A DNA stretch of 64,000 bases from a virus. Lineage: Duplodnaviria > Heunggongvirae > Uroviricota > Caudoviricetes. Shown piece after piece: positions 4,643-29,669 of the stretch. The notes under the pieces were generated by a model that saw only the letters and a list, made by a program, of their open reading frames with translations, ran no database searches and was not told the origin of the DNA. Positions within the stretch are counted from its first letter, which is position 1. Each line of letters begins with the position of its first letter. Position numbers and translations under genes: made by a program. The DNA lies in IMG/VR virus record IMGVR_UViG_3300033463_000001, positions 211,298 through 275,297 of that record; one strand, written 5' to 3'.

Positions 4643-5544
4643 TGGCAAACGGACTTTACGGACAGACAATTCCGGCGAACATAACATCCAGAGATGTTGA
4701 GATATGGTACACGTACAGTGAAAACCATAATACTGTTAGTAGCGAATCGGGTATATGGAAACAGCTTGATTCGAATATTTTGCGTCAACAGACACGAGAT
4801 GTAAGCAACGGTGCGCCGGATGAGTTCCTTGAGGGTATGTATAAAATTAACCTTCCGGCAAGCGTGTTTAATAAGCCTGGATTCTACAGTGTCTACATTA
4901 AACCGCGCGAGATTCGTGCAACAATTGTTGACGTATCTGCATTGCGTGATTTCCCGGATGTACGTGGAATCGTTGTCAACGCAGAAGCCGTAGATGGTGA
5001 GTTCCGTTCGCTTTTCAACACAAATGATGGACTTGTTGGGTACCGCGTGTGCTATCTTGACACATCAACCGGAACAAGGCAGGATTATGTAAGGCTTGTA
5101 ACTAGTAACACAAAATGTGAACCAGTTATTAAGCAAGCCAGGAACAGCTCTGACCGTTCACGTATGTACGTTTACAACTCATCGTCCACGCTTACATTCA
5201 TTACACTTACTCCGTCTATGACAACGTCGTATTCGGCAGCGAATATTGTCCCGTACATTGGTGTTAAAGACCAGGAGGTTTTATTCATCAACACAAAGTT
5301 CACGCCGATACACTTCGATATACACATTGTTGAGAATGACGCAGATACTCTGACAACTCTCATCAAGGGTGACCAAGTTCTCAATATGGAGAATGGTCTC
5401 ACAACCATCTTCACAGATAATGGTGAACCGTTTACACAGTATCGCACTGTTACAATCAAGGATGAGTACACCGGTCAACCCGTTAAGCGTCAGCGTGTCA
5501 ATATGGGTGGCAACATCGATACAAGAGAGACAATTGATATGTAA
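4642..5544 (+). CDS. hypothetical structural protein (300 aa)
   Basis: ORF with start overlapping the upstream stop (ATGG/TAATGG coupling); long and gap-free. Confidence 0.5.
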   Translation: MANGLYGQTIPANITSRDVEIWYTYSENHNTVSSESGIWKQLDSNILRQQTRDVSNGAPDEFLEGMYKINLPASVFNKPGFYSVYIKPREIRATIVDVSALRDFPDVRGIVVNAEAVDGEFRSLFNTNDGLVGYRVCYLDTSTGTRQDYVRLVTSNTKCEPVIKQARNSSDRSRMYVYNSSSTLTFITLTPSMTTSYSAANIVPYIGVKDQEVLFINTKFTPIHFDIHIVENDADTLTTLIKGDQVLNMENGLTTIFTDNGEPFTQYRTVTIKDEYTGQPVKRQRVNMGGNIDTRETIDM

Positions 5545-8500
5545 TGGCTACAAAGAGTTATACACAATATAGCAAACGGACGAAACACCAAGTTGCTGGT
5601 AAATCTGTCATTTTCGAAACAGACCTGACCACATTGCAGGACATGTCGAGTGTAGAGAATGACAGTGTTCCTGTGTACTCTAGCGGTAATATTGTCATTA
5701 CAAAATCAAACGAACAACACTACCAGCGCTCACACAAGACGGCCGGATACCTAGAAAACCAGCATGGTGGCACAATATGGAACGGAGAGATACTTAATGA
5801 GCTTCCGGTTGACGCAAATAGTTGCTCTGCGACACAGATTCTCAAGCGTGACTATAATAAGTTACAGTCATTTGCATATTACGGTTCATGCATGGAGTTG
5901 TTCCGTGCGTCTCTGAACCACATTGTAGAGGCATTTCCGGGTGAAATTTTCGTTGAGGCGTTTCCATCAGGTAGCGGCATTGGTATCCCTCATAGAGATT
6001 CAACGGCAAACGGTACTCCGTTGAGTGGTACCACTTCGGATGGTCTTGTTGCCGACTGTATGTGCAGTAATCCATTCAACATTGATATATTCGCAACTTC
6101 GGTTAGCAAGGACTTGACGTTAAGTAATAAACTCAAATACTTTGCCAACGGAGGATGCCGCAATTATAATGTGATAAGGCCGGATGGTAGCAAATATGCT
6201 ATTGAAGAATGGAACGTTATCAACCGCAGCGACAAAGACTGTTTCATTCCTGGAGATATTGTATGTGAAGTTGAAATAGGCGCAGCCGTTAACGACTTGG
6301 GTATCAGCACAATGGAAATCAATAAGGATTTCGAGGTTGGCTTGGGTCACCAGGATGGCAACTTCATGCGTGTGCTTATTATCAAGACAGATAGCGGCTA
6401 TGGTATTTTTACCAATGAGAAATACCTTGGCTACCACATCCGTCCGAATGACGCGTGCATCAACGAAGCCTACTCAAAACTGTCTATATTTGAACAATAT
6501 CTTTTAAATAGAGAGACACTGCCGATGTATAAGGCAACGTTCGAGGTTATCTACGAGACTTCGACAGGATACGAGCGTGGCCTCGAATATTTCATTTTCC
6601 CGACAGACATTAGCGGTTACAACTTGGATATCACCGGCAACCAATACGACGTATATGCCGGTTCGCTCGCTAATCTTGGTGTTCTGTACGATGAGTTATA
6701 CTCTGACAACCTGTATCGTTCAATGACACATGAGGCCATCAGCAACATGGACTTCACAAAGATTGACGAAAACAGTGAGACAGAGTACACACTTGGTGTG
6801 GAGAAAATGAAGAAAGTTATCCGTGTCCTTGGTAGGTGCTTCGACGAGATAAAGGTCTATATTGACGGTATTGAGAATGTTCACACCATCTCTTACTCTA
6901 ATGCGGCCGGAACCAGTGACTATTCTCTTTCTGACGAGTTGGAGAATGACGGTTGGGATATCGCAAGCGTTGTTGCGTTACAAAAGAAAAACTACTACGA
7001 ACATACCGGAGAAACGTTCACTGAGGAAAGCACGATGCCTATCAATGACACAGATTTCATTGATAAGATAATTTACTACATCGGTGCAGACAATCACCAG
7101 TTTGAACACGGTAAGTTCTATAGGTGCACACAGGATACATCACGTATTCAAATAACAAACACGCGTAGTGGTTCTATCGACTTTGTTGACGGTGGAATCA
7201 TGAAGACATTGCGTACATGTTTGTCTAAACTTACTCCTGCTTGGAAACAATATCTGCCGCTTACATTGAAAAGAAGCAGTGGAAAGTGGCGCCTCACCAT
7301 GAGCAACGGTACTGAGTTGATGAATGCCGATACAATCGACGAGTTCAAGTTCGGTATCACACAAGACATGATTGTTGACACGCCTATTACTAGGTACGTC
7401 TTCAATATCACCATGTTCTTATGGGAGGAGAGTGTTCCGTATGCTGCCGGTGAAAAGGTTTACACTGATAAGGAGCCTTTTGATGTATGTACCAACCTTA
7501 TTGTTGACAGCAAGGGTGAAACACATACACTATACCGTGAGTTTTCTGAGGTTGACGCAGAATATAAGCCGTATGGCAATGAGAGTGATGCGAAGTTCCT
7601 GACTTGCTGTGGTGGAGAAGTTCCGGCTAACGGGCAACAACTCATGACTGAGATTGTGAAGTTTATCCACTACAATGGAAAGAAGTACATCCTTGACTGC
7701 AACGATGAACTGCGTGAACTTGTTAATGGTGAGGTTGTAACACATCCTATTGTAAACGGATGTATTGAGTTGCGCGGTGAGACTATTCCAGTTCAAAGCG
7801 AGAAACGCATCCTGCACACTGTAACGAGTTATTTCGACAATAAGACTTGGACGGCCAGTGAGATAAACTACGAGTTCCAGAAAAGGTTGAAGCTCAACTC
7901 TCGCGCCATTTTACGCAAGAAAGGTACGGCAAACGCAATTGAGTCGTTGCTTGCTCTGTGGGGAATGAAATCGGATAGGTTCGTTAGCAATAGTTCTAAC
8001 ACCGACCTTGTTTCTGACTACAGCATACGCGAGACATCCATCTATACAGATGCCATTAAAGACACGTACGAGCCTACCAGAGAGCTTCCGACGATGGATT
8101 GGTATAACTATATCAAAACATACACATACGACACTCCAAACGCAAGAATGAATATCTACGATGCATATCGTGGATTGCCGGTTACGTATGTACAATACTA
8201 CATCGACCCGACGGACGTAAGCGGCGAAGCCTACACAACCAACGCATACGACTACAAGAACACAAAGCGCAAGGAGGCGTTCCGTATGGTATATCCGTAT
8301 TTTGACAACACAGCAGAATACGACGGTGGTATGTACTACCAGATGTACGGTGGGTGGTTAAAGAAGACTCCGTACTGTTTCGGTGATAAGAACTTGATTC
8401 TTTGCGGTGAGACATTCACTGAGACACTGCGCAACATTCACTTAGTTGACAATATAGAAGCATTGAAAGGACTGCGCTATAACTCCTTGTACGATGGATT

Positions 8501-9878
8501 CGTTTGTGAGGTACGGGATAACAGCATTCCTTACATGAATATTAGCGGTGAGTTGCTTCCGGTGAAGACTGAGAGTGTGAAATTTGTCAATAACGGTGGC
8601 ATCCTGAATGAACGTACCATATTGTCTTATGTTGAGGTACCGATGTACTTTGACGGATTCACTGTTGGTAACGTAACATATAGCGGTGATGTAAAAATAT
8701 CCAATCCTTGCTTCGAAGACTTCGAGGAGATTATTGACCTCTACGACCTGCCTAGTGAGCGCCCGACAACGAAGAAGATATACCTATATTACACAAAGGA
8801 TGGTGAGAAATACCCTGTTGACATTTACAACCTTGAATCCGGCGTTACTGCTGATATGATTCACGTGGATATCGAGATGGATACGGATATGGGCGGCGAT
8901 GACCCGTCTGTTCTCATGTACGCTGTTAGCGAATACTTGGAACCAGGACAAAACTATTCAAACTACTGGGTACTGGACGACGTTGACAACTACCAGTCTT
9001 TCGCCATGTCTAATAACCCATACTACCAAATAGGTTGGACTAGACTCAAGGAAAACGACCCGCGCGCATTGACGCTTAACTCGATTAAGACCATCATAAC
9101 AGGTAATAACCCACACAGTGCACGTATTCCTTATGATGATGGTTCCGAGTACTTATATCGCTTCGTGAAACTGTTTAAATACCCGTACATGCATCGTGAC
9201 TTCGATGAGCGTTGTTTCCAGGATGTAGAGGCGGCGTATGATGAGATATACATGTATGGATTTGAGAATATCTTTACTGATAAGTACTCAACGTACATCA
9301 ATCCGACTCCGATTGCAGAATATCGTTACGAGGACATGTCCGGCGCAACTCCGGATGATGACGGGAAACTTGTGCGCTATATCGGCGAGACGCGTACGCA
9401 AGAACCTAAATATATCAAAGGTGCATTCTATCGCTATGCCAAGAGTAGTGATACGTGGAATTTCGAGGAACAGGAGAAGGTTTATATCAACGGCATCTAC
9501 GACACAAAGTGCCATGCCTTTGCAAATGTTAAACTGAGTGACGGTTCCGTATTAAAGTGGGGTGATGTTGGTAACCAGTTAACTGATATCGCAGCGTACG
9601 GAGACACTCCGTTCCCGAAACTGTATGACGACGACACAGATTCTAACCCGAACCGTATCATCAACACGAAGTATGTTGATATTGAGTTCCACAACGACAG
9701 TGCTGACATAGAATTGGTGAAGTACTATGATGTTGCATTGGTACACTATATTCAACAGTTGCTCCCGTCAACTATTATTGCGTCGATACGTTTCGGTCGT
9801 TACCGTGATTGTGGTATCGGATGTATGATGGTACCGTACATTGTTCCTATACATGAGGACGATTTCTTGGTGCGCTAA
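5544..9878 (+). CDS. giant virion/tail protein (1444 aa)
   Basis: 4.3 kb uninterrupted ORF, start coupled to the upstream stop (TAATGG). Size and position immediately before the fibre modules suggest a tail/baseplate component. Confidence 0.6.
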   Translation: MATKSYTQYSKRTKHQVAGKSVIFETDLTTLQDMSSVENDSVPVYSSGNIVITKSNEQHYQRSHKTAGYLENQHGGTIWNGEILNELPVDANSCSATQILKRDYNKLQSFAYYGSCMELFRASLNHIVEAFPGEIFVEAFPSGSGIGIPHRDSTANGTPLSGTTSDGLVADCMCSNPFNIDIFATSVSKDLTLSNKLKYFANGGCRNYNVIRPDGSKYAIEEWNVINRSDKDCFIPGDIVCEVEIGAAVNDLGISTMEINKDFEVGLGHQDGNFMRVLIIKTDSGYGIFTNEKYLGYHIRPNDACINEAYSKLSIFEQYLLNRETLPMYKATFEVIYETSTGYERGLEYFIFPTDISGYNLDITGNQYDVYAGSLANLGVLYDELYSDNLYRSMTHEAISNMDFTKIDENSETEYTLGVEKMKKVIRVLGRCFDEIKVYIDGIENVHTISYSNAAGTSDYSLSDELENDGWDIASVVALQKKNYYEHTGETFTEESTMPINDTDFIDKIIYYIGADNHQFEHGKFYRCTQDTSRIQITNTRSGSIDFVDGGIMKTLRTCLSKLTPAWKQYLPLTLKRSSGKWRLTMSNGTELMNADTIDEFKFGITQDMIVDTPITRYVFNITMFLWEESVPYAAGEKVYTDKEPFDVCTNLIVDSKGETHTLYREFSEVDAEYKPYGNESDAKFLTCCGGEVPANGQQLMTEIVKFIHYNGKKYILDCNDELRELVNGEVVTHPIVNGCIELRGETIPVQSEKRILHTVTSYFDNKTWTASEINYEFQKRLKLNSRAILRKKGTANAIESLLALWGMKSDRFVSNSSNTDLVSDYSIRETSIYTDAIKDTYEPTRELPTMDWYNYIKTYTYDTPNARMNIYDAYRGLPVTYVQYYIDPTDVSGEAYTTNAYDYKNTKRKEAFRMVYPYFDNTAEYDGGMYYQMYGGWLKKTPYCFGDKNLILCGETFTETLRNIHLVDNIEALKGLRYNSLYDGFVCEVRDNSIPYMNISGELLPVKTESVKFVNNGGILNERTILSYVEVPMYFDGFTVGNVTYSGDVKISNPCFEDFEEIIDLYDLPSERPTTKKIYLYYTKDGEKYPVDIYNLESGVTADMIHVDIEMDTDMGGDDPSVLMYAVSEYLEPGQNYSNYWVLDDVDNYQSFAMSNNPYYQIGWTRLKENDPRALTLNSIKTIITGNNPHSARIPYDDGSEYLYRFVKLFKYPYMHRDFDERCFQDVEAAYDEIYMYGFENIFTDKYSTYINPTPIAEYRYEDMSGATPDDDGKLVRYIGETRTQEPKYIKGAFYRYAKSSDTWNFEEQEKVYINGIYDTKCHAFANVKLSDGSVLKWGDVGNQLTDIAAYGDTPFPKLYDDDTDSNPNRIINTKYVDIEFHNDSADIELVKYYDVALVHYIQQLLPSTIIASIRFGRYRDCGIGCMMVPYIVPIHEDDFLVR

Positions 9879-9914: not shown

Positions 9915-10631
9915 ATGGATACAATAGCGGATACACTACGTGGAACGATTTTGTCACTCAAGCAAATTAGTGATAGGCTGAAAAAGCTCGCTAATGCGCT
10001 TGGTGATATGCCATCTGGTACCACAATATACACATCAATCGAAGAGATAAATAATACAGTTTATGAAAGTGCCGCCTCTATTATCGAGTACCTTCAAGGC
10101 GAAGATAGTGGCGCTACAAACACTGCCATTTTGGAGGCTATTGGTGCAATTGAATTTGATAAGTCGGGATTAGCTACAGATATTCAAGCCAATGAAATAA
10201 TTAGCGACGTCAGTGGCCTACCAAGTGAATTACACACAGTATTGGAAACCGTGTCCGGTATAACTGGTTATGCCATACAGGGTAGTGGTACTCCTGAAGA
10301 TGTGAACCTCACTGTTGTAGATGACAAAATAGGAGACATTGCAGAAATTGTAAGTGCGATTACTGGTGGTGAGATTGATTGTACAATACCAGGTAACTAC
10401 GCTCTCGAAACAACACTTGTTAATGCTCGCGATTCAATCCTAAATGAAGTTAGTGGCGTAAGTCGCGAAATAGGTACAGACACAGACCAGGTTACAGTGC
10501 ATGAAAAACTAGATTGGCTCGTCGACTCAACGGGGGAATGCACATTTGTAAGAAACAACGATGGAACCGATACATGGACGCTTATTCTAGATAGGAGTGC
10601 GTCGATTAACAATAACACACTAAACGTATAG
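9915..10631 (+). CDS. fibre-like module protein, paralog family (copy 1 of 3)
   Basis: 238 aa. Shares block FDKxGLATDxQANEIIxDVSGLPxEL...VLExVSGITGYAxQGSGxxEDVNLTVVDxKIGD with ORFs 14483..15277 and 17871..18548, each preceding a DGR target gene. Confidence 0.6.
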   Translation: MDTIADTLRGTILSLKQISDRLKKLANALGDMPSGTTIYTSIEEINNTVYESAASIIEYLQGEDSGATNTAILEAIGAIEFDKSGLATDIQANEIISDVSGLPSELHTVLETVSGITGYAIQGSGTPEDVNLTVVDDKIGDIAEIVSAITGGEIDCTIPGNYALETTLVNARDSILNEVSGVSREIGTDTDQVTVHEKLDWLVDSTGECTFVRNNDGTDTWTLILDRSASINNNTLNV

Positions 10632-10639
10632 TCTAAGAT

Positions 10640-11944
10640 ATGGATGTAACAAAAATACAAAAAGGTAATACAACGTACAATATTTCTGTACAAGGTGTTG
10701 CAACACAAGTAGAACGTGCTGAGGCTGCTGCAAATCAAGCTACAGTTGCTGCCGTTGCTGCTCAACAGGCCGTGACATCAACACACGAGCTTGTCGGTGG
10801 TGAATATGTTCCTAGCTTCGACGCTACAGTAACTTATCATGTTGGTAATTTAGTATTCCATCGTAATAACGACGATGGTCATGTGTTCAGGTGTATTGCA
10901 GAGAGAGCTCCAGGGCCTTGGGTTGGTTCAACGGATGCTTCTTTCGTTCAGACATCTTGCTACGGTGAGATAATGGATATGCGTGGCCACGATATAAATA
11001 TTGAGAGTGTAACTGTTAAACTAAAACCGGACATGGTTAAAGAGTCTCTTGGTGGAGCACCTGCGCTTTCTGGTATCACTGTATTCTTAAAAACAGGAGT
11101 CGGTGATGAAGGCTCGACTTATTCCGGAGTAACAGATGAGAATGCAGAATATACTTTCTCAAACATCCCTTGGGGAACTCAGTATACAATTTTCACAGAA
11201 ACTGAAGCCGTATCTGGTTATGCAGACCCACGGCCGAAGTCTGTTCAATCTGCGAACATGTACCACCGAAACGTAACGCTTTTCTATAGGTTGCAAATGA
11301 CGGGATGGTATGTGATTACAAAGAGTAGTGTTGAACACATTGATATCGCAGACTGGGATACATCAAACAACGACCAGGCAGAGTTACTTGGTTATCAAAA
11401 TAGTCAGTTTAGGTTTGCTATTAAGATTAAAGGACGCGCAACTCAACAGGGCGCATGGTCTAATCCAGGAAACGTAGAAATTAATATTCCGAGCTTATAC
11501 TATGCAAGTACTAACTCTGCCACGTTCATGACAGATGCCTACCTTGCAGATGTTGAGTATCCGGCAGGTGGTGAAGTTTATAGCCGTCTCGCTTTCAACA
11601 CAAAGGCGATTCTTGATAATAAAGGTACACAAGGTGTTCAAGCTGCTACGTTCTGCCATAACGCTACAGTAGAAATCGGAGGTGAAACATATCATGGATG
11701 CTTGCCGCTGCTTGCTATGCTCAACCTGTTTACTAATGGTAGTGCGGAGCGTACTGAGTTCTATAACACCATGAACGAATACCTGACGTGGCTTGGTGGT
11801 ACGCCACTGTTTCTTCGCAGTGGCACCTGGTGGTCCAGCGAGCAGTACAATAACGAGCAAGCTTGGTACATCTACCATGGTAGTCTGAGCAACCACAACA
11901 AGACTAACACGAACAACGTTGCGGTGCCGTTTTACGACCTTTAA
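10640..11944 (+). CDS. DGR target protein 1 (putative receptor-binding protein) with C-terminal variable region
   Basis: 434 aa. The last ~42 codons (...TWWSSEQYNNEQAWYIYHGSLSNHNKTNTNNVAVPFYDL) match TR1 except at TR adenines. N-terminus is paralogous to the other two targets. Confidence 0.8.
   Translation: MDVTKIQKGNTTYNISVQGVATQVERAEAAANQATVAAVAAQQAVTSTHELVGGEYVPSFDATVTYHVGNLVFHRNNDDGHVFRCIAERAPGPWVGSTDASFVQTSCYGEIMDMRGHDINIESVTVKLKPDMVKESLGGAPALSGITVFLKTGVGDEGSTYSGVTDENAEYTFSNIPWGTQYTIFTETEAVSGYADPRPKSVQSANMYHRNVTLFYRLQMTGWYVITKSSVEHIDIADWDTSNNDQAELLGYQNSQFRFAIKIKGRATQQGAWSNPGNVEINIPSLYYASTNSATFMTDAYLADVEYPAGGEVYSRLAFNTKAILDNKGTQGVQAATFCHNATVEIGGETYHGCLPLLAMLNLFTNGSAERTEFYNTMNEYLTWLGGTPLFLRSGTWWSSEQYNNEQAWYIYHGSLSNHNKTNTNNVAVPFYDL
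11818..11943 (+). repeat. DGR variable region VR1
   Basis: ~126 nt nearly identical to 12513-12638. There are 6 mismatches, all A in the TR copy (A->C,G,T,C,G,C in VR), plus one G/C at the extreme 3' end. Confidence 0.85.
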
Positions 11945-11979: not shown

Positions 11980-12450
11980 ATGCCGCCGCACAGCTATACA
12001 AAGAAATACAAAAAAAGACAATTCATAAAAACATCACACGCAGTGGCGCGGATAACTAAAGTTCAGATTTTTAACTCCGTTCTTGGCCTATTAAAGTACC
12101 TAGAACGTACAAAAGACCAGTTTCCGAAAGGCGCAGGACGCGAATATAAGGAACGGATATCACATATCGTGCTATACGAGCTGATTCCGTTTTTGAAAGA
12201 CGCGTACGAAAGCAAAGGAGACCAGAAACGGAGGTTGGATGCCCTGAAGTCGTTTAAGAACAGTTTGGATATTCTGAGCTATGTTTTGAAACTATGTTCG
12301 GATTTCCACTGGATTTCAGTTACACACATGGCGAAAATATCTCTTATGATAGATGATATTGAAACACAATGTAATAGCTGGATTAAACGAACGAAGGCAT
12401 CCGGGTCAGAGTCCGAAGACTTACTGGTCGACGGAGAGTGCCCTAAATAA
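11980..12450 (+). CDS. avd: accessory variability determinant-like small basic helical protein
   Basis: 156 aa ORF between target and TR/RT, the canonical Avd position. Basic and helix-rich, with an FPKGAGREYKERI segment resembling four-helix-bundle Avd family proteins. Confidence 0.55.
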   Translation: MPPHSYTKKYKKRQFIKTSHAVARITKVQIFNSVLGLLKYLERTKDQFPKGAGREYKERISHIVLYELIPFLKDAYESKGDQKRRLDALKSFKNSLDILSYVLKLCSDFHWISVTHMAKISLMIDDIETQCNSWIKRTKASGSESEDLLVDGECPK

Positions 12451-12512: not shown

Positions 12513-12638
12513 CAGTGGCAACTGGTGGTCCAGCGAGCAGTACAATAACGAACAAGCTTGGTACATCAACAATGGTAGTCTGAACAACAACAACAAGACT
12601 AACACGAACAACGTTGCGGTGCCGTTTTACGAGCTTTA
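12513..12638 (+). repeat. DGR template region TR1
   Basis: Non-coding copy of VR1, rich in AAC (Asn) codons in the VR frame. It ends 3 nt before the RT start codon. Confidence 0.85.
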
Positions 12639-12641
12639 TTC

Positions 12642-13877
12642 ATGGAAAATAACGTAGTGGATATTGAAGAACTTTGGCTGGCAGAACAAGACTGTGCCAA
12701 GAGAAAAAGGAGTAGCACTGCGTGTGATGAATTTATGATAAACGAAGCCGCCAATGTGGCTAAGCTTTGGAAGGAACTAAACGACGGAACGTATGAGATA
12801 GGTTATAGCACAGCGTTTGTTGTAACAAGGCCTAAATTGCGAGAGGTGTTTGCGGCTGATTTTAGGGATAGGATTGCGCACCACTATATAATCAATAGGA
12901 CAATAAACCTGTTTGAAGCCCACTTTATTGAAGACAGCTACAATTGTCGTAAAGGAAAGGGCACGACATACGCAATTAAACGCATAGACGAACAGATACG
13001 CCAGATTTCCAATAACTTCACAACTGATTGTTGGATTCTGAAGTGTGATATCAAGAATTTTTTTATGAGCATCAACAAGAATATCCTTTGGAGAATGCTC
13101 GAAAAGTTCTTGATTGAAAACTACCAAGGAGACGATAAAGCATTTGTAATTAGCCTGACAAAGCAGATTGTAATGCATCGTCCGGAATTGAAATGTATCA
13201 GGCACGGTACGAATGACTTATGGGATGCGCTTGACACAGGGAAAAGTCTGTTTAACAGTCTACCGTACAAAGGTCTTGCAATAGGCAACCTGACCAGTCA
13301 GATATTTGCAAACTTCTACCTCTCGTATTTCGATAAGTGGATAATCAGCAAACCAGGACTTGGGTACGGAAGATATGTGGACGACTTCATCGTATTAGCA
13401 AAGACAAAAGAGGAGTTGTTATCTCTAATACACGAAATTAGAGCATACCTCAAGGATAATCTTGAACTCCAACTACACCCGAAGAAGTTCTACCTGCAGC
13501 ACTACACGAAGGGTGTGAAGTTCACAGGGTACGTCTGGAAGATGAATCGCATCTACACAAGCAACCGGACTGTAAACAATGCTATTATGATGGTTAGAGA
13601 ATGGAACATGCATCCAGGATTGCCTGGTATAGAGCGATACATACAGAGATATAACTCATTTATGGGTTTCTTGCTATACACGTGTTCGTATAATATACGC
13701 AAGCGAATATGGGAGATGCTTGATGCAAAAATAAAGGAATTGATATATATTGATAAAGATTACAAAGCCGTCCATATCAAGGACAGATTCAACCGAATAA
13801 ACCTAAGAGCAAATGCAATACGGAATCATAAACATAGAAAGCGAAAACTTCGCTCAGTCAAAAAAAATAGCCGATAA
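12642..13877 (+). CDS. DGR-type reverse transcriptase 1
   Basis: 411 aa; RT motifs including IGNLTSQIFANFYL (DGR-specific I/LGxxxSQ instead of QGxxxSP) and YGRYVDDFIV (YxDD catalytic box). Confidence 0.9.
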   Translation: MENNVVDIEELWLAEQDCAKRKRSSTACDEFMINEAANVAKLWKELNDGTYEIGYSTAFVVTRPKLREVFAADFRDRIAHHYIINRTINLFEAHFIEDSYNCRKGKGTTYAIKRIDEQIRQISNNFTTDCWILKCDIKNFFMSINKNILWRMLEKFLIENYQGDDKAFVISLTKQIVMHRPELKCIRHGTNDLWDALDTGKSLFNSLPYKGLAIGNLTSQIFANFYLSYFDKWIISKPGLGYGRYVDDFIVLAKTKEELLSLIHEIRAYLKDNLELQLHPKKFYLQHYTKGVKFTGYVWKMNRIYTSNRTVNNAIMMVREWNMHPGLPGIERYIQRYNSFMGFLLYTCSYNIRKRIWEMLDAKIKELIYIDKDYKAVHIKDRFNRINLRANAIRNHKHRKRKLRSVKKNSR

Positions 13878-14376
13878 CCTATATTTTATCCGCGTAAAAT
13901 TAGGCGAAGACGGTAGTGGTTTTACACAAGCAATTGAGGCCGTCGTAACGCACGAACCAACAGAAGAAGATTTTGCCGGCTTACTGAATAGCTATACCGA
14001 TGGTGTTAAGCGTCATAAGATTGACGACGTGGATACATACGATAAGTCAGATAATGTGAACGGTTTCATTATAAATGGCGAGCATGCTTGGTTTGATAAG
14101 ACGACGCGCATGGGAATTATCAATTTGTTAGAATGTCAACAAAAGACCGGTGAGACATTCACAACTATAGACATCAACGATAAGCTATATGAACTAACAA
14201 TCAGTAGAGGGCTTGAGATGATGCAACAATTGGAGGTGTACGCCGGACAGTGTTTCTTGCGCACGGCGATACACAAGAAGAATATACAAGCACTTGATTC
14301 CGTTAGTGACATTGTAGCATATGACATAACGGATGGCTATCCGGAGCAACTGGAGTTCACACTGGCAGCACTCTAA
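13813..14376 (+). CDS. DGR-module-associated ~187 aa protein, paralog family (copy 1 of 3)
   Basis: Shares NxFxINGxxAWxDKxTRxGxxNLL...LEVYAGQC...TxGYPExLEF with 17302..17868 and 21941..22501, each located at the 3' end of a module. Overlaps the RT 3' end by 65 nt in another frame. Confidence 0.55.
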   Translation: MQYGIINIESENFAQSKKIADNLYFIRVKLGEDGSGFTQAIEAVVTHEPTEEDFAGLLNSYTDGVKRHKIDDVDTYDKSDNVNGFIINGEHAWFDKTTRMGIINLLECQQKTGETFTTIDINDKLYELTISRGLEMMQQLEVYAGQCFLRTAIHKKNIQALDSVSDIVAYDITDGYPEQLEFTLAAL

Positions 14377-14455: not shown

Positions 14456-14464
14456 TATTTATTG
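14456..14464 (+). promoter_or_regulatory. TATTTATTG motif (copy 2)
   Basis: GATATTTATTGTTAG, 19 nt upstream of ATG 14483. Confidence 0.4.
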
Positions 14465-14482
14465 TTAGATGTAGATACAATT

Positions 14483-15277
14483 ATGACAATAACAGAGTTA
14501 TTTAGAAAAGCAATCATGAGTCTCTCCGGGATTTCTCAAGTCCTCAAAGAGCTCTATAACTGGTCACACGAGAGTGTTGCCACAAAGGAGTCTGTTCAAC
14601 AGGAGCTTACCAACAAGGCCACCAAGCAGAATGTGACGGATGCACAATCCGCTATTATTGGTGCAATCAACAGCAAACCTGTTACACCGGCTACTGACCT
14701 AACACCGGTTACACAGGTCTTGGGTAGCTATAACTCCAGCAAAGGTACTATTCAAGACCAAATCGGCAATATTGTATTCGATAAGAATGGACTCGCTACT
14801 GATGCGCAGGCTAATGAAATTATCGGAGATGTCAGTGGGCTACCTGGTGAGTTGAATGCCGTTTTGGAAAGTGTTTCTGGTATTACCGGATATGCTTACC
14901 AAGGAAGTGGGTCTTCAGAGGATGTTAATCTCACAGTAGTAGACAATAAGATTGGTGACGTACAGGAGGTAATCGACACAATTAACGGCGGAACGATGGA
15001 TATTAATATTCCATCGGATTACGTTCGCGACACAACGGTTACAAGTGCCAAAACTGAGATTCTTAGCGCTATTACTGCTGTTAGTGGCTCGGTTGGTGTT
15101 GACAATAGCGGCGTGACTGTACACGAAAAAGTTGATACAATAGAAGCAATGGTGCGATACCTGTTCAATGGGTGTAGCATTGTAGAGAATAGTGACGATG
15201 TCGGAACAGGAAATCAAGGATATACAGTAATACTTGACCAGACAGCATCGATTAACGACGGAATACTTACATTATAA
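14483..15277 (+). CDS. fibre-like module protein, paralog family (copy 2 of 3)
   Basis: ORF track begins at TTG 14462; first ATG is 14483 (MTITELFRK). Strong identity to 9915..10631 over FDKNGLATDAQANEIIGDVSGLPGEL...VHEKVD. Confidence 0.6.
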   Translation: MTITELFRKAIMSLSGISQVLKELYNWSHESVATKESVQQELTNKATKQNVTDAQSAIIGAINSKPVTPATDLTPVTQVLGSYNSSKGTIQDQIGNIVFDKNGLATDAQANEIIGDVSGLPGELNAVLESVSGITGYAYQGSGSSEDVNLTVVDNKIGDVQEVIDTINGGTMDINIPSDYVRDTTVTSAKTEILSAITAVSGSVGVDNSGVTVHEKVDTIEAMVRYLFNGCSIVENSDDVGTGNQGYTVILDQTASINDGILTL

Positions 15278-15278
15278 C

Positions 15279-16841
15279 ATGAGCGCGAATAAAATTACAA
15301 AATTTCAGAAGGGTAACGTTATATACGACCTGTTTGCTCCCGGATTGGATGAAGCAGTAGCAAGTGCTGCTACCGCACAGAATAACGCCGAGTATGCTGC
15401 CAACACGGCTTCGTACGCTGCGGCTATGACATACCATATGCTTGGACTTGAGAATGTTCCTTTGTGGAACCAGTCCGATGCCTATGCAAAGAATGACATT
15501 GTTCGTAAGACGGTTGTTTCTGGGGGCGTGTCCAGTGACCATATCTTCCGTGCCAACAACGAAATTGCTGCAGGAACGGCGTGGAATGATGACCTATGGA
15601 CGGATACATCTGTGTGGGGTGAGATTCAAAACATGAAGGTTGGTGCTTTGTCTGTTGAGACGGTGCGTGTTACAGGATATATGTTCCAGGATGGCTCACT
15701 TATACCGGTTCCGGAAGGAGAGGCATTGAATGTTGTCTATAACGAGACCAACCACTTTTATTCCTTTAAGGCAGGCCTATGTGAGTTCTCAGTACCGCGT
15801 GGTACGGAATATGGCATCATTTATAGCCCGATTAATGGTTACAATACTCCGTCTGCTGCCTACTATAACGCTAATATGTCAACGCGTAGTATCACAGCTA
15901 CATATCACTATCGTCAAAGTGGTTGGTTTGGTGTTAAGACTGTAACTACAACGGTTAACAACACATCAAGTGTAAGCATCGAAGAAGTTCCAATGTCAGA
16001 GTGGAACCAGGCTGATAATGATGCATCAATAGGTATTAAGTTCTACGGACCTCTTGGTCACTACTTCCTGCCGAAAAACTGGAAAGACTATAGAACAACA
16101 GGTGTTCAATTCTCTTCTCTAAATATTGAGTTCTCTACCACTACTGCGGCAAACATGGAAGCATTGGTTATTGACCGGTATTTCCGCATTGGAACAGAGC
16201 TAACCTATCAAAAGAGTGGTGGTGTTGCAACGTGCATCATTACAAAGGCACAGGCAGACACTTGGTATCAAGGCAACGACGTTACCGATACCGACGGTGA
16301 CTTAATTGTCAGCGGACTTTCTTCTGAGGATAAAACAGCGTATCAAGCAGTTATCACGGCTCGTTATGACTATGGATTGAGTCCTGCGGTTGGTGGACAT
16401 ACGTTAAGTTCTAACAATGCAACACTGACGAATGACTGGGATGCCTTTGATGCAACGCAACAACTTGTTGAGATGTGGCAGGCATTTGCCAGCTTTAACC
16501 TTCAATCATTAACTGCGTGCGCTGCAGTGTGGGCACGTGGTAAATCGCTAACCATTGGAGAGTCAACGTATTACGGAAACTTACCTACTGCCGGTATGGT
16601 TCTCAGCCTTAGTGGAAACAGAAGCCAAATTCAACAGCATCTCAAGACAATCGGCGTCGACGCAGCCTATGCTGAAGCGTTTACCATCGGTACGGCGTCG
16701 TGGGGTTCCGGCAGCGCCGGTAACACCTGGTCGTCCTCACAGTTTAATGCTAGCATCGCGTGGTGCTTGAATACGTCTGGGGCGTTGCTCAGCCACAACA
16801 AGAGCTACAGTTACTCGGCGGTGGCCGTGTTCGACCTATAA
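15279..16841 (+). CDS. DGR target protein 3 with C-terminal variable region
   Basis: ATG at 15279 (MSANKITKFQKGN), directly after the upstream stop; N-terminus paralogous to 10640 (MDVTKIQKGN). The last ~43 codons match the orphan TR3 except at TR adenines. Confidence 0.8.
   Translation: MSANKITKFQKGNVIYDLFAPGLDEAVASAATAQNNAEYAANTASYAAAMTYHMLGLENVPLWNQSDAYAKNDIVRKTVVSGGVSSDHIFRANNEIAAGTAWNDDLWTDTSVWGEIQNMKVGALSVETVRVTGYMFQDGSLIPVPEGEALNVVYNETNHFYSFKAGLCEFSVPRGTEYGIIYSPINGYNTPSAAYYNANMSTRSITATYHYRQSGWFGVKTVTTTVNNTSSVSIEEVPMSEWNQADNDASIGIKFYGPLGHYFLPKNWKDYRTTGVQFSSLNIEFSTTTAANMEALVIDRYFRIGTELTYQKSGGVATCIITKAQADTWYQGNDVTDTDGDLIVSGLSSEDKTAYQAVITARYDYGLSPAVGGHTLSSNNATLTNDWDAFDATQQLVEMWQAFASFNLQSLTACAAVWARGKSLTIGESTYYGNLPTAGMVLSLSGNRSQIQQHLKTIGVDAAYAEAFTIGTASWGSGSAGNTWSSSQFNASIAWCLNTSGALLSHNKSYSYSAVAVFDL
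16709..16838 (+). repeat. DGR variable region VR3
   Basis: 130 nt versus 17060-17189 at a constant offset of 351 nt. About 20 mismatches, all at TR adenines, plus one terminal G/C. Confidence 0.85.
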
Positions 16842-16987
16842 ATTTAGGTTCGCAAGTTACAGCATTGGGTCATTGCAGACACAATGCGCTATATAATACA
16901 TAAGTGAACATTGACATATACAGCAAGAGGTTAAATTCTCGACGCAATGTAAGCCAGCATGCTGATACTTACGGGTTAGGCAGCGCG

Positions 16988-17059: not shown

Positions 17060-17189
17060 CGGCAACGCCGGTAACACCTGGTCGTCCTCACAGTATAATG
17101 CTAACAACGCGTGGTACTTGAATACGTCTGGGGCGTTGAACAACAACAACAAGAACAACAGTTACTCGGCGGTGGCCGTGTTCGAGCTA
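17060..17189 (+). repeat. DGR template region TR3 (orphan: no adjacent avd or RT)
   Basis: Intergenic, AAC-rich (aacaacaacaacaagaacaac) copy of VR3. Confidence 0.8.
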
Positions 17190-17192
17190 GGA

Positions 17193-17204
17193 ATGAAATG
17201 CTAA
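17193..17204 (+). pseudogene. vestigial RT start (ATG AAA TGC TAA) at the position where RT genes begin after TR1 and TR2
   Basis: In modules 1 and 3 an RT ATG lies 3-5 nt after the TR end. Here an ATG at the same offset is followed by a stop after 3 codons. Confidence 0.4.
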
Positions 17205-17301: not shown

Positions 17302-17868
17302 ATGGAATATATAATTGAGAGATATGCGTCGGACGATTTCCGTACGTCAGAAAAGATTGGAAATAGGTACATCATACGCACAAAAATTGAAGACTTGCCG
17401 GAAAGTGAGTCTGTTCGCTGCGTCGAAAGTATCATTGACCATAGTCCGGCACAAGCAGATTATGATGCACAGGTAGCAAGCTACATAGGAGATGTGCAAC
17501 AGGAGAAACTGTCATGCATACGGCGCTATGATGTGTCGGATAACGTCAATATCTTCTACATTGATGAGCACGCAACATGGCTTGACAAAGATACTCGCGT
17601 CGGTCTGGACAACCTCATTAAGAAACAAAAGGAGGCCGGTGCTACAGAAACGACCTTGTGGTTAGCTGGTGTCAGCTTTGTTATCGAGATTGACCATGCA
17701 ATAGACCTTCTCAGACAACTTGAGATTTACGCAGGTCAATGCTACAACAAGACAGAGGAACATAAGGCAGCAGTTCTTGCAACTACAACAATAGCTGGCG
17801 TTGAGAACTACGACTACACAACAGGTTATCCGGAGCCACTGCACTTTACGATTAGTAATAATGAATAA
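17302..17868 (+). CDS. DGR-module-associated ~188 aa protein, paralog (copy 2 of 3)
   Basis: ORF track starts at 17227. Paralog alignment and ATG 17302 (MEYIIERYASDDF) give 188 aa. Conserved NIFYIDEHATWLDKDTRVGLDNL...LEIYAGQCYN...TTGYPEPLHF. Confidence 0.55.
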   Translation: MEYIIERYASDDFRTSEKIGNRYIIRTKIEDLPESESVRCVESIIDHSPAQADYDAQVASYIGDVQQEKLSCIRRYDVSDNVNIFYIDEHATWLDKDTRVGLDNLIKKQKEAGATETTLWLAGVSFVIEIDHAIDLLRQLEIYAGQCYNKTEEHKAAVLATTTIAGVENYDYTTGYPEPLHFTISNNE

Positions 17869-17870
17869 CC

Positions 17871-18548
17871 ATGCCAGAGTCTATTAGCCAATTGTTTAAC
17901 AAGACCATACTCAGTCTAACAGGGATATCTACATTCCTGAGTAATATCTACGCCTGGCTTACAAGCAACGTTGCTACGAAGAGTGACGTTTCTACAGCCA
18001 CGCAGAATGGTGCTACAAAGACAGACCTTAGCACATCAACCAATACCATTGTAACTGCTATCACGAATAAGCCAGTGACACAGATTGGACCTATAATGGA
18101 TGTGCTGGGTGACTTCAATGCAGGTAATGGTACAATACAAGACCAGATTGCAGACCTTGGAACTGCTGTTGGGCAGATTGAGTTTGATAAGACCGGGTTG
18201 GCAACAGAGAGTGGAACAACGAGCGCCGTTACGGCAGCGGCCGGGAGTGTTATCAATGCGCTACCAAAAGACTACGCACAGAGAGGGGAGAATAGTGGTG
18301 CAACTAATAGTGCAATTCTAAACGCTTTGAGCGATGATAGTGGAAATACTGTTGTTGATATTCTTACCGACGAAACAAGTGGCCTATCAGCCATAAGTAA
18401 TGCAGTTTCAGGACTGCCTGAAGTAATGAAAAATATGTATGCGGCACACTTTGAACAAAACGAAGATGGTGAGGATACGTATACAATGGTAATGCCGTTA
18501 ACAGCCATAGTTAGTGAAACCGGCGAAGCAATCACAATAAACATTTAA
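17871..18548 (+). CDS. fibre-like module protein, paralog family (copy 3 of 3, diverged)
   Basis: 225 aa; retains the IQDQI...FDKTGLATE block and the same position in the module. Confidence 0.5.
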   Translation: MPESISQLFNKTILSLTGISTFLSNIYAWLTSNVATKSDVSTATQNGATKTDLSTSTNTIVTAITNKPVTQIGPIMDVLGDFNAGNGTIQDQIADLGTAVGQIEFDKTGLATESGTTSAVTAAAGSVINALPKDYAQRGENSGATNSAILNALSDDSGNTVVDILTDETSGLSAISNAVSGLPEVMKNMYAAHFEQNEDGEDTYTMVMPLTAIVSETGEAITINI

Positions 18549-18556: not shown

Positions 18557-20128
18557 ATGTCAACACCTACAAAAATAGCTACTAGATTAAAATCAGCAAT
18601 AACCGGTGAAGAGTTCTTTATTGGAACTGTTGGTACTCAAGAAAAGGTTTCTGTATTATTGTCTGCACCTTCCAGTGTGGATTGGACACAATATTCCGTA
18701 GTAGTACAAAATATATCACAAACTGGTTCCCAGACTCTCAATTTAACATCTGAGGCATCTGGTGCAACAACCGTCGGTGTATGTGCTTTCAATATGCCAA
18801 TGGGCGTTATATACGAAGTGCAATTACCGACAATTACGGGATACGTATCTCCAATTAACCAGCGATTCTCAGCAACATCAGCAATGAGACAACTTATTCA
18901 TGAATACACAGCTGAAGGTGAGAAATTCGAACAAGTAACAATACTTGCATCCTTTGCATCTGCAGGAGGTACTGTTGCGTTATTGGAAAATATGACTGTT
19001 ACAGCGCTGTGCACCGATGGAACATCTTATTCAGGTATGTTTAATGCTAGTGGAATGTGTACTATTACCAATATCCCATATGGTAAAACATACACAATTC
19101 AATACCCGGATGTAATTAGTAGTGACGGGTCTATTCCATTTCATCATGACCGCAATAATGAACAGTTTACCGCCGGAGAACCATCAAGGATGCTTAATGT
19201 TACCTATTATGAGGGTATCATTGGTATTCATGGTGTTGACAGGTACGGAAACCTATTAAGTCTAGAAGAAATTGAATCTGGCATCACAAACGGAACGATA
19301 GTTGCTTCCGACATTATAGCAGGATATTACAATGATTCAAGGCTATCTCAGTCAACACGTGGTGATGGTTCAGGTATAGGTAATGCTGTTGTATGGAGTG
19401 TGTGGGATAATAAAATGCAAGGTTCCTGGATGAACCCGAATGGAAGCACTGTTAATGGCGTACCATTGAATAGCTCAGAAGGATATCACCTTGATAAATC
19501 GCGCTGTGCTGGAAAATATTATACGTTGCTAATCTCAGACTACGCAACAAGTAATAGCTATGCTTCAATCATTAAAGACTGTACCGCGCGAACTATAAGA
19601 GCACAAAAACTTTATGCTGTATATAACGATATTGTATATCGCCAAGTAGAATATAGTGACAATCAATGGAAATCTGTAACAGAGACCCCTGTTATTGTTT
19701 ATACTCATGATTCTATTACAAACCTTAACGGTGTAACAGGCGTGACTTTCTATAGCACTGCGCAAGGCGCAACTGATGAAGATAGTAGCGATATCGCATT
19801 TACTGCTGATGTTTTGAACTCTGCCGCAACAAAGAATGGTTTTACGGGTTCATACGCACAGATGAAAGGAATGGCAGACAACTGGGCTAATAACACAACC
19901 AATCCAGGTGCTTATACGGCGTACAGACTCTACAAAGCTTTAGGCATTGAGACTAAGATTACATCTGCTTCCAGCAACGCGACGTCTCACAACATCCGTA
20001 ACGGCTACTGGTGGACGTCTTGTCAGGCCAGTTCGACTTATGGAGTCTTACTGCTTAGTGGCTCCTTCGACATCGGCAACAAGTACTACGGTAGCTCTGT
20101 GTTGGTTTTGTTCGACCCTTTTGAATAA
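18557..20128 (+). CDS. DGR target protein 2 with C-terminal variable region
   Basis: 523 aa. C-terminus ...GYWWTSCQASSTYGVLLLSGSFDIGNKYYGSSVLVLFDPFE corresponds to TR2 (GNWWTSCQNSSTNGVKLNSGSFNNNNKNNSNSVLVLFEP). Confidence 0.8.
   Translation: MSTPTKIATRLKSAITGEEFFIGTVGTQEKVSVLLSAPSSVDWTQYSVVVQNISQTGSQTLNLTSEASGATTVGVCAFNMPMGVIYEVQLPTITGYVSPINQRFSATSAMRQLIHEYTAEGEKFEQVTILASFASAGGTVALLENMTVTALCTDGTSYSGMFNASGMCTITNIPYGKTYTIQYPDVISSDGSIPFHHDRNNEQFTAGEPSRMLNVTYYEGIIGIHGVDRYGNLLSLEEIESGITNGTIVASDIIAGYYNDSRLSQSTRGDGSGIGNAVVWSVWDNKMQGSWMNPNGSTVNGVPLNSSEGYHLDKSRCAGKYYTLLISDYATSNSYASIIKDCTARTIRAQKLYAVYNDIVYRQVEYSDNQWKSVTETPVIVYTHDSITNLNGVTGVTFYSTAQGATDEDSSDIAFTADVLNSAATKNGFTGSYAQMKGMADNWANNTTNPGAYTAYRLYKALGIETKITSASSNATSHNIRNGYWWTSCQASSTYGVLLLSGSFDIGNKYYGSSVLVLFDPFE
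20003..20119 (+). repeat. DGR variable region VR2
   Basis: 117 nt versus 20652-20768. About 20 mismatches, all at TR adenines, plus a terminal G/C. Confidence 0.85.
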
Positions 20129-20169: not shown

Positions 20170-20583
20170 ATGGGAAAAATTGTAGATAAATACACAGACG
20201 GTAGGGAGATACCTCTATATAAAGCAACGGAAACATTGCTTTATGACGTTGATAATTTGATTAATTTTTTACAGAAAGATAGGAAGCATACTCTTGGACA
20301 ACACATGCTTCTCCTTGTTTTGGATATGCTGGATTGCGTGGCGGTAGCATACGATTTTCCAGAAAGAAAAGTTGAACAATTAAAGTTGTATATTTCGAAG
20401 TATAACAACTTGGCAACAATTCTTAAAATGTGTGAAATAAAGGGTTATCTAATGAACAATAATAAGAACTATTATGTTGAGATGATTAAACCTTTAGGAA
20501 ACGCATATAAACAAGCTAAAGGTTGGTTAGTATCCGCAAACAAAGAAGCCGGAGTCTGTATGGATAATACAGAGAGCGCGTAA
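20170..20583 (+). CDS. avd: accessory variability determinant-like protein
   Basis: 137 aa helical ORF between target 2 and TR2. The segment KDRKHTLGQHMLLLVLDML resembles the PRKHG region of known Avd proteins. Confidence 0.55.
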   Translation: MGKIVDKYTDGREIPLYKATETLLYDVDNLINFLQKDRKHTLGQHMLLLVLDMLDCVAVAYDFPERKVEQLKLYISKYNNLATILKMCEIKGYLMNNNKNYYVEMIKPLGNAYKQAKGWLVSANKEAGVCMDNTESA

Positions 20584-20587: not shown

Positions 20588-20651
20588 TAGGGTGGCTATC
20601 TACTTTCTCCAGAAATGGGAAGTTAAGAATAAGATAATGATAGCGACATAC
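20588..20651 (+). other. conserved TR leader element (copy 3)
   Basis: AGGGTGGCTATCTACTTTCTCCAGAAATGGGAAGTTAAGAATAAGATAATGATAG; same architecture as the TR1 and TR3 leaders. Confidence 0.45.
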
Positions 20652-20768
20652 GGCAACTGGTGGACGTCTTGTCAGAACAGTTCGACTAATGGAGTCAAAC
20701 TGAATAGTGGCTCCTTCAACAACAACAACAAGAACAACAGTAACTCTGTGTTGGTTTTGTTCGAGCCT
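20652..20768 (+). repeat. DGR template region TR2
   Basis: AAC-rich copy of VR2 ending 4 nt before the RT2 ATG. The ORF-track 'protein' 20592..20780 is just its translation. Confidence 0.85.
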
Positions 20769-20772: not shown

Positions 20773-21996
20773 ATGAGTGAGTGGTGTACAATAGAAGAAG
20801 TATATGCTGCCTATCTTGACTGTAAAAAGCACAAAACAAGGTCTAGTTCATACGCAGAATTTGCTGCTAACGAAGCAATAAATTTGTATGAATTATGGCT
20901 TGATTTGAATAATCATACCTATAAAATTGGTTTAAGTGACGCATTTTGTGTTACACGGCCAAAAGTTAGGGAAGTATTCGCTGCTAGGTTTCGCGACCGT
21001 ATAGTTCACCATTTGGTGATTATGCGATTGTTGCCTATATTTGAACAACATTTTATTGAAGATACGTATAATTGCCGAAAAGGGAAGGGTACGGATTACG
21101 GAATTAATCGTGTATTGAATTTTACTAAAAACCACCCAAATGGTTGGATATTAAAGTATGATATAAGTTGTTTTTTCATGAGTATTAACAAAACTTTGTT
21201 AAACTCAATGCTGAAAACATTTATTTGCGATAATTATAGTAGGGATGACAAAGACGAGATTTTATCTTTGGTAGAAATGATTGTCATGCATCGCCCTGAA
21301 TTGCTTTGTATAAGGAAAGGTGATTTAAGCTTATGGAATCAATTACAAAAAGGAAAATCTTTATTTCGCAGCGACGGAAATCACGGCCTTGCAATTGGCA
21401 ACCTTACAAGCCAGATATTTGCGAATTTCTACATGTCGCAAATAGATAAATGGCTAGCAAGTATTGATGGTGTAGAATATGGAAGGTATGTTGATGATGC
21501 AATTTTAGTATCTGACGATAAAAATTTATTACTATCTATACTCCCCAAACTGCGTGAGCGATTAAGCGTTGAGCTTGATTTAGAACTACATAAAAAGAAA
21601 ATATACATACAACCAGTCAGGCATGGCGTTTCGTTTTTAGGGAGCGTAATTAAGAATGGGCGTTTATATGCAGGAAATCATACAGTTACAAATGCATTTA
21701 ATATAACGAAAGAGTTTGCGTGTAGGTTAGATAAGGAGAGTTGCGTTGAAAAATTTGCACAGCGATACAATTCTTATATGGGATATCTAATACATCGTAA
21801 AACATACGCAATCCGATGGAATCTATGGAATAATGTAGATGAAGAAACAAAAAAGTTTGTATACTTAACAAAACGCATGGGTTTAATGCGTGTAAGGGAT
21901 GTGTACAAAGAGAAAACTAAGCTAAAAAGTCAATATAAACATGATAAAAGAAACATTAGCAATAAACGACTGGGAGGAGTTGTCAAAGGCTTTTAA
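20773..21996 (+). CDS. DGR-type reverse transcriptase 2
   Basis: Start moved to ATG 20773 (MSEWCTIEEV), downstream of TR2. Motifs IGNLTSQIFANFYM and YGRYVDDAILV. About 50% identical to RT1 by eye. Confidence 0.9.
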   Translation: MSEWCTIEEVYAAYLDCKKHKTRSSSYAEFAANEAINLYELWLDLNNHTYKIGLSDAFCVTRPKVREVFAARFRDRIVHHLVIMRLLPIFEQHFIEDTYNCRKGKGTDYGINRVLNFTKNHPNGWILKYDISCFFMSINKTLLNSMLKTFICDNYSRDDKDEILSLVEMIVMHRPELLCIRKGDLSLWNQLQKGKSLFRSDGNHGLAIGNLTSQIFANFYMSQIDKWLASIDGVEYGRYVDDAILVSDDKNLLLSILPKLRERLSVELDLELHKKKIYIQPVRHGVSFLGSVIKNGRLYAGNHTVTNAFNITKEFACRLDKESCVEKFAQRYNSYMGYLIHRKTYAIRWNLWNNVDEETKKFVYLTKRMGLMRVRDVYKEKTKLKSQYKHDKRNISNKRLGGVVKGF

Positions 21997-23754: not shown

Positions 23755-23756
23755 AG

Positions 23757-24287: not shown

Positions 24288-24288
24288 A

Positions 24289-26540: not shown

Positions 26541-26566
26541 AGTTGTAATAGTTTTTCAAATTCGCC

Positions 26567-26617: not shown

Positions 26618-26619
26618 CA

Positions 26620-27198: not shown

Positions 27199-27211
27199 GT
27201 GTTCTCATTTG

Positions 27212-27400: not shown

Positions 27401-27412
27401 ATCCTTTATTGT

Positions 27413-29657: not shown

Positions 29658-29669
29658 ATGCGTGCTGTG

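Follow-up and report, generated by a model that had tools for sequence, protein, structure and literature searches.

The locus analysed lies in a 64,000-nt stretch of phage DNA (hereafter the window), which is part of a ~327 kb jumbo-phage contig recovered independently in JGI and ENA assemblies. The region consists of three tandem modules, with all features on the plus strand. Each module contains an A gene, a B gene that is the DGR target, the DGR parts (Avd-TR-RT in modules 1 and 3, a TR only in module 2) and a small terminal gene, named here X.

Module 1 opens with A1 (9915-10631, 238 aa), which is paralogous to A2 and A3 and possibly encodes a fibre adaptor or proximal part. It is followed by B1 (10640-11944, 434 aa) with its variable region VR1 (11818-11943), Avd1 (accessory variability determinant; 11980-12450; bAvd PF22296, E 4.6e-5), the template repeat TR1 (12513-12638), the DGR reverse transcriptase gene RT1 (12642-13877; RVT_1, E 3e-20) and X1 (13813-14376, 187 aa), the start of which is overlapped by the RT1 3' end over 65 nt. 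Module 2 comprises A2 (14462-15277), B2 (15234-16841; VR2 16709-16843), TR2 (17060-17194), which has no RT or Avd of its own, and X2 (17302-17868, 188 aa), starting 107 nt downstream of this orphan TR. Module 3 comprises A3 (17871-18548), B3 (18557-20128; VR3 20001-20119), Avd3 (20170-20583; phrog_3206 'Avd protein of DGR', E 3e-6), TR3 (20650-20768), RT3 (20773-21996; RVT_1, E 2e-15) and X3 (21941-22501, 186 aa), which overlaps the RT3 3' end by 56 nt. A2 and A3 were recognised as ORFs paralogous to the other A genes, and the TRs by VR/TR comparison. The likely start of RT3 is ATG 20773; the longest ORF opens at GTG 20707 inside TR3, and the gene call in L010/L011 is 407 aa.

The last ~40 codons of the B genes constitute the DGR variable region. 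The three VR/TR pairs are 86-94% identical (94% for VR1/TR1, with the mismatches at TR adenines), and their mismatches are concentrated at template adenines. As this adenine specificity was observed in all three pairs, the description of the repeats as DGR modules in the original prediction is correct. The same prediction placed X at the 3' end of each module, overlapping or directly following the RT gene: the terminal position holds for all three copies and the overlap for X1 and X3, but X2 follows TR2 with no RT. It was also right that an X copy is retained in the orphan module, since X2 is intact and no RT or Avd remnant was found in the 460 nt between the B2 stop (16841) and X2.

Module 2 does not appear to be silent. 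Two independent assemblies of this phage showed 14 differences over 20,561 nt, all of them located in VR2 at positions templated by TR2 adenines, indicating that TR2/VR2 is most likely still being mutagenised, presumably served in trans by RT1 or RT3. Ongoing diversification of VR2 fits the intact X2.

B1 is presumed to be the client fibre or receptor-binding protein of module 1. It gave a weak SpaA prealbumin-like Pfam match, and no fibre-family match was obtained for B1-B3. The B proteins are considered tail fibres because of their DGR-target status, their position after large structural ORFs and the relatives described below. The idea that B1 is a C-type-lectin-tipped fibre is unsupported: only 6 homologs were found, the AlphaFold2 (AF2) model reached a pLDDT of 63, and Foldseek of this low-confidence model caught only the Ig-like/prealbumin middle domain (Ig-like adhesin/pilin matches). 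The A proteins and the neighbouring large ORFs had no match in PHROG and Pfam scans, and megablast of the region against GenBank phages returned no match.

Assignment of the X proteins to DUF4376

The presence of three paralogs of ~187 aa, as originally predicted, was confirmed by their ORFs, by end-to-end alignment and by similarity searches. X1, X2 and X3 are 35-40% identical in a full-length alignment with 45 invariant columns, with pairwise BLASTP E values of 7e-44 for X1/X3 and 2e-42 for X1/X2. When all six frames of the window were searched with the family HMM, exactly three copies were recovered (next best match, E 0.15), there was no fourth copy, and the 1444-aa ORF preceding module 1 does not end in a domain resembling X. 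Conservation among the three is concentrated in the C-terminal part (residues 76-187, 40-55% identical; residues 1-50, 20-31%). For X2, ATG 17302 agrees with the nearly invariant M1 of the family and the upstream GTG 17227 does not. The conserved motifs quoted in the prediction are essentially right, but copy 2 differs from them in carrying IDEHATW for INGxxAW, LEIYAGQC and PLHF. The X3 sequence is identical to P0002, which is found on ~327 kb contigs.

The prediction had stated that this family could not be assigned to a known one, and in this respect it was wrong. Searched individually against Pfam, X1 gave a sub-threshold match to PF14301 (E 0.0078, 17.1 bits vs the gathering cut-off of 25), and X2 and X3 gave no PF14301 match; weak matches to the C-terminus of phrog_1807 'tail fiber protein' were obtained for X1 and X2 (X2, E 4e-4). 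A profile search collected 276 relatives, with E values down to 1e-93 against the window profile, and 38 of the 61 relatives that were aligned matched PF14301 (best E 1.4e-8). The window copies are below threshold, but this proportion of matching relatives places them in the family by transitive homology. An exhaustive HMMER search at E<=1e-3 yielded 1,607 representatives at 50% identity. The proteins among the matches listed have lengths of 126-318 aa, and in them a variable N-terminal part precedes the conserved C-terminal domain.

The structural comparison, which the prediction had proposed as a check, pointed to the same family. The AF2 model of X1 built on the family alignment (pLDDT 96.1, pTM 0.84) is laid out as four strands (residues 4-45), a helix (51-77), a hairpin (85-92), a helix (96-111), a hairpin (116-129) and a final helix (130-160). 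When this model was searched against the predicted viral structures of BFVD with Foldseek, the top four matches were phage proteins annotated as 'DUF4376 domain-containing protein' (E 1.9e-15 to 1e-11, TM 0.61-0.70), and DUF4376 proteins also made up most of the matches at E<1e-3. As judged by sequence homology and predicted fold, X1-X3 are a divergent branch of Pfam DUF4376 (PF14301).

Other families were considered and set aside. Pfam scans of the three copies and the 61 relatives gave no match to Caudo_TAP/TfaMu (PF02413) or to the DGR accessory families (bAvd, HRDC), and X is unrelated to Avd. An intramolecular chaperone of the Peptidase_S74 type was likewise rejected, there being no Pfam match and a probability of 1.4% when hhalign was run against the S74 end of the window fibre. 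This Peptidase_S74 fibre is encoded at 58251-60221. Profile searches of PDB sequences with the query profiles A1 and A2 gave nothing meaningful (unrelated proteins, E 0.2-0.8).

Published DUF4376 proteins and the predicted role of X

Experiments have established DUF4376 proteins as tail-fibre chaperones in two Alteromonas phages, V22 and A5, and in a Campylobacter prophage. In the Alteromonas phage V22, gp27 is essential for active fibres (PMC7289586, PMC10579305), and A5 gp9 co-purifies with its fibre (PMC10579305). The H-fibre of Campylobacter CJIE1 showed receptor-binding function only when the downstream DUF4376 gene was co-expressed (PMC7882524). AlphaFold-Multimer models depict a trimeric helical core that caps the tip of the fibre and has beta-hairpin 'tentacles', with strands of the N-terminus extending a sheet of the fibre head, and these chaperones structurally resemble the intramolecular chaperone domains (Peptidase_S74) of the T5 fibre and the K1F tailspike (PMC10579305).

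Like V22 gp27 and A5 gp9 (DUF4376, IPR025484), the X proteins are small and have this Pfam domain in their C-terminal part, and their genes lie downstream of a fibre gene. In a qualitative comparison of the descriptions, the AF2 layout of X fits the helical body, beta-hairpins and N-terminal strands published for V22 and A5 (PMC10579305). The differences lie in the hosts, since X belongs to Bacteroidota gut or rumen phages and not to marine Alteromonas phages; in the divergence of the window copies, which are too distant to pass the Pfam threshold individually; and in the arrangement, since the X client ends in a DGR variable region, the Avd-TR-RT cassette intervenes between the two genes, and X is triplicated.

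We consider that X1-X3 are intermolecular tail-fibre chaperones of the DUF4376 class, cognate to B1-B3, and assign this reading a probability of about 0.8. Each X most likely serves one client, the DGR-diversified receptor-binding protein encoded upstream in its own module. One of the two options of the original prediction, in which X serves the receptor-binding protein encoded before it as chaperone or assembly factor, is thereby well supported by DUF4376 membership, the published DUF4376 experiments and the context in more than 200 related loci.

It is unlikely that X is instead a permanent part of the virion, that is, a distal tip or cap subunit that aids receptor binding like T4 gp38, or like Mu Tfa, which stays bound. 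DUF4376 chaperones have been proposed to stay on, possibly as transient 'caps', and the association of A5 gp9 with its fibre persists at high salt, whereas V22 gp27 dissociates easily from its fibre (PMC10579305). That an own X copy is kept with each fibre variant would suit a structural subunit, but the hypervariable ligand-binding residues are in B and not in X, and diversification would be defeated if a lasting cap covered the VR. No VR lies within X, which is itself undiversified. A chaperone dedicated to B remains the preferred reading.

Genomic context of the X relatives

To compare the neighbours of X, more than 542 X loci were collected from IMG/VR and the best 80 were analysed, with RT and VR/TR sought within 7 kb. 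In about 37 of these 80, an RT ends about -100 to +230 nt from the X start and an A-biased VR/TR pair is also present; in the other ~43, neither RT nor VR/TR lies within 7 kb. In the DGR-free loci, X starts 3-60 nt after an ORF of 500-1700 aa, and for most of these ORFs the matches are to PHROGs of tail-fibre, tail or virion-structural proteins, or to Gp53-like_C or Phage_fiber_rpt. The upstream fibre is the conserved neighbour in these loci, and what lies downstream varies (a holin, a convergent second X copy, others). A genome-side sample of 43 loci from species-dereplicated bacterial genomes and MAGs, largely of Bacteroidota, contained ~15 RT-adjacent loci. Overall, ~60% of the sampled X relatives are without a DGR.

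The DGR-linked and DGR-free X proteins are interspersed in a neighbour-joining tree of 42 clusters, and three clusters defined at 90% identity hold both states. The difference between the states could be located in closely related loci. L070 and L038 are otherwise collinear, but the fibre stop is separated from the X start by 1,878 nt (TR+RT) in L070 and by 42 nt in L038; the same presence/absence pattern of the cassette was observed in L039/L080 and L078/L031, and L009/L001 differ by the RT. In these four near-identical locus pairs the DGR cassette (~1.8 kb) is an indel placed precisely in the gap that separates the fibre gene from the chaperone gene. The partner with which X is conserved is the upstream fibre gene, and the DGR cassette represents a mobile insertion separating the two.

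The association was also examined from the RT side. RTs with 39-52% identity to RT1 were found at 76 loci that could be evaluated; X is directly downstream in 38 of these and no X is present within 5 kb in the other 38; for the 28 closest RT relatives, X follows nearly all. In the crAss-like phage cr56_1, X lies right after the annotated tail fiber gp54, and an Mtd-like DGR target and an RT are found further on, followed by a holin. X is neither needed by related DGRs nor restricted to them. The share of nearest relatives that are DGR-adjacent (~35-45%) is high, and is attributed here to the prevalence of DGRs on Bacteroidota phage fibres, a baseline that we assume. Adjacency of RT and DUF4376 genes recurs in Bacteroidota phages, including the cultured BS-TP1.

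These contexts bear on the second option of the original prediction, a new DGR accessory factor acting with RT and Avd in mutagenic retrohoming or its regulation. The overlap of X with the RT 3' end in two window modules, and by 55-106 nt in the related L007, L009, L013 and L095, suggests co-expression, and both the ~37/80 and ~15/43 loci with RT directly upstream and the regular presence of X beside the closest RT relatives are in line with such a factor. Nevertheless, this role is very improbable. More than half of the homologs sit behind fibre genes without RT or VR/TR within 7 kb, half of the related RT loci do without X within 5 kb, nearly identical X proteins of the same 90% cluster occur both with and without the cassette, and cr56_1 keeps X apart from its DGR. 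Pfam scans revealed no nucleic-acid-binding or Avd-like signature in X, and module 2 retains X without an adjacent RT. As X is found behind fibres without DGRs and half of the related RTs are without X, a fibre chaperone and not a DGR accessory factor is indicated. A wide distribution in phages without DGRs, linked to tail-fibre genes, had been named beforehand as the pattern that would speak for a chaperone, and it is essentially what was found.

It is scarcely credible that X should instead be grouped with the module after it and act on the A/B pair encoded there, as N-terminal adaptor or assembly factor. The X2 stop is only 3 nt from the A3 start, X1 ends 86 nt before A2 and L007 has an A-like gene after X, but module 1 has no X ahead of it, the genes behind X3 are convergent, unrelated ones of NAD metabolism, and in DGR-free loci the upstream fibre is constant whereas the downstream genes vary. 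The first two of these objections mark X as the last gene of its module and not the first of the next.

A large group of the DGR-free loci carries two convergent X copies overlapping by 31 nt, as in L054 (6863-7393 on the plus strand and 7363-7893 on the minus strand). Here the fibre, of 1080 aa, has Gp53-like_C at its end, Gp53-like_C tips without a promoter are encoded on the other strand, and inverted repeats of 21-38 nt are located at the junctions of constant and variable parts. Identity is 59% between X and its convergent counterpart X' and 55% between their tips. The convergent pairs look like parts of an invertible fibre-tip cassette following the logic of Mu S/U and S'/U', in which each alternative tip can have its own convergent X copy. 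In phage Mu, U/U' (Tfa, Caudo_TAP PF02413) of the invertible G segment offers an analogous arrangement, with a small chaperone gene directly after the fibre gene. As no sequence match was found between X and Caudo_TAP, Mu U/U' represents a different family; the presence of DUF4376 in Mu U, as stated in PMC7882524, was not reproduced here.

A probable chaperone gene next to a DGR

A series of events may account for the present arrangement. The ancestral unit would have been a fibre gene followed by its chaperone gene, and an Avd-TR-RT cassette would have lodged between the two in this phage lineage; with the cassette in this position, the chaperone gene comes to overlap or follow the RT gene. 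The module would then have been triplicated in tandem, one copy having a TR only and presumably being served in trans.

The action of X itself can be sketched by analogy with V22 gp27 and A5 gp9. The conserved C-terminal helical body, together with the beta-hairpins, would trimerise and cap the C-terminal tip of the nascent fibre, and this trimeric cap may nucleate folding of the fibre trimer. Docking on the fibre head would fall to the N-terminal beta-sheet domain, a part that lacks conservation across the family. We also infer a physical interaction of X with its fibre, and the B protein of the same module as the client of each copy. A strict model in which the variable N-domain sets specificity was softened, because the N-termini of X and X' in the L054 shufflon are almost identical.

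The combination of elements was compared with two known systems. In Bordetella phage BPP-1 (mtd-avd-TR-brt), as in the window, a target with a C-terminal VR, Avd, TR and RT follow one another in the same order, with adenine-specific VR/TR differences. Unlike in BPP-1, a DUF4376 gene closes each window module; BPP-1 is not known to have a dedicated chaperone gene after brt. The cultured Bacteroides phage BS-TP1 (PQ571274.1) is closer: gp27-gp24 encode a large target, a four-helix-bundle (Avd) protein, an RT and a 'DUF4376 domain-containing protein', and an A-biased VR/TR pair is present as in the window. It differs in having one module and a far larger target, in an identity to X of ~30% over the C-terminal domain, and its record gives no function.

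X1-X3 are new, divergent members of the known DUF4376 tail-fibre chaperones, and no new DGR component is involved. Deposited genomes, that of BS-TP1 among them, already contain the fibre-DGR-DUF4376 architecture without comment. The adjacency of RT and DUF4376 appears to be undescribed in the searchable literature: none of the papers found that mention DUF4376 concerns DGRs, and those found on DGRs, tail fibers and chaperones, judged by title and abstract, do not appear to address the link. The present analysis records this architecture (fibre, DGR cassette, DUF4376 chaperone) as recurring in Bacteroidota phages, and gives a testable assignment, as cognate chaperones of DGR-diversified receptor-binding proteins, to three genes that would otherwise be 'hypothetical' in an uncultivated phage of ~327 kb.

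Since the client of X ends in a hypervariable region, X must bind invariant scaffold residues. A speculative extension, which we regard as doubtful, is that the pairing of DUF4376 with DGRs is itself functional: X might grip the invariant scaffold of the VR domain and buffer the folding cost of hypermutation in the manner of a capacitor, or might cap the variable face until host contact. Buffering would widen the usable fraction of VR sequence space, and either form would explain why each module, the RT-less one included, has its own intact X, translationally nested in the RT 3' end. In practical terms, expression of DGR targets, or DGR-based fibre libraries, from these phages should include the downstream DUF4376 gene.

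Variation in the orphan module

Module 2, the "orphan" module of the window that lacks RT and Avd, carries a variable repeat (VR2, window 16709-16843) and a template repeat (TR2, 17060-17194). The ~327 kb phage has been assembled twice independently (L010 and L011); compared over 20,561 nt, the two versions differed at just 14 positions, all 14 of which lie inside VR2, each at a position templated by a TR2 adenine; VR3 was identical between them. By this pattern, the RT-less module is most likely still undergoing diversification. Because VR2 varies at TR2-adenine positions in a module without its own RT, the mutagenesis is presumably supplied in trans, from RT1 or RT3.

Reading frames and junctions of the DGR genes

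The longest ORF of RT3 begins with GTG at window 20707, within TR3 (20650-20768). Gene callers applied to L010 and L011 place the start at ATG 20773, just past TR3, paralleling RT1, whose start lies 4 nt after TR1. At the other end of the RT genes, the start codon of X, the DUF4376-type putative fibre chaperone, lies consistently 55-106 nt within the RT 3' end and in a different frame throughout the clade of the window (window 13813-13877 and 21941-21996; also L007, L009, L013 and L095), and such nesting may reflect translational coupling. In other clades, X begins 2-15 nt past the RT stop.

A ~1.8 kb DGR cassette, comprising TR and RT with or without Avd, was found as a clean indel at the junction of fibre stop codon and chaperone start in otherwise collinear phages (L070 4747-6624 versus L038 6583-6624; also L039/L080, L078/L031 and L009/L001), and in the partners that lack the DGR the fibre gene still has its VR-like 3' end.

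Two further arrangements were observed in relatives. In L009, a single TR matches two VRs (repeats at 3535-3655, 4808-4929 and 5603-5721) that lie at the 3' ends of two adjacent target genes (412 and 397 aa), both upstream of one common Avd-RT-X set. In a 365 kb relative (L007/L008, 3850-7092), an IS605-type insertion (4436-6346; resolvase/MerR gene and OrfB/TnpB) interrupts the DGR RT gene that precedes the X homolog, leaving RT fragments at 3850-4197 and 6550-7092.

Other fibre loci and the region downstream of X3

L054 carries an apparent tail-fibre shufflon (3608-9178), in which a 1080-aa fibre with a Gp53-like_C end is followed by DUF4376 genes that converge with a 31-nt overlap. The opposite strand carries three Gp53-like_C tips as promoterless cassettes, and inverted repeats of 21-38 nt mark the constant/variable junction (6506-6526/9113-9133, 95%; 6499-6536/8238-8275). 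Similar arrangements were found in L014, L047, L050, L055, L057, L058, L073, L081, L088, L101, L114 and others.

The window also encodes a second tail fibre (58251-60221, 656 aa), which matches many tail-fibre PHROGs and whose C-terminus carries an intramolecular chaperone domain, Peptidase_S74 (E 3.5e-11). With this domain encoded in an X-bearing phage, both intra- and intermolecular fibre chaperones are predicted to be used.

Directly downstream of X3, an NAD-metabolism cluster occupies the minus strand (window ~22622-30542), encoding DUF488, CTP_transf_like (NMNAT-type), NUDIX, NAPRTase/nicotinamide phosphoribosyltransferase, Thg1, phosphoribosyltransferase, isochorismatase (nicotinamidase-type) and NAD synthase, and could be a counter-defence set for NAD replenishment.
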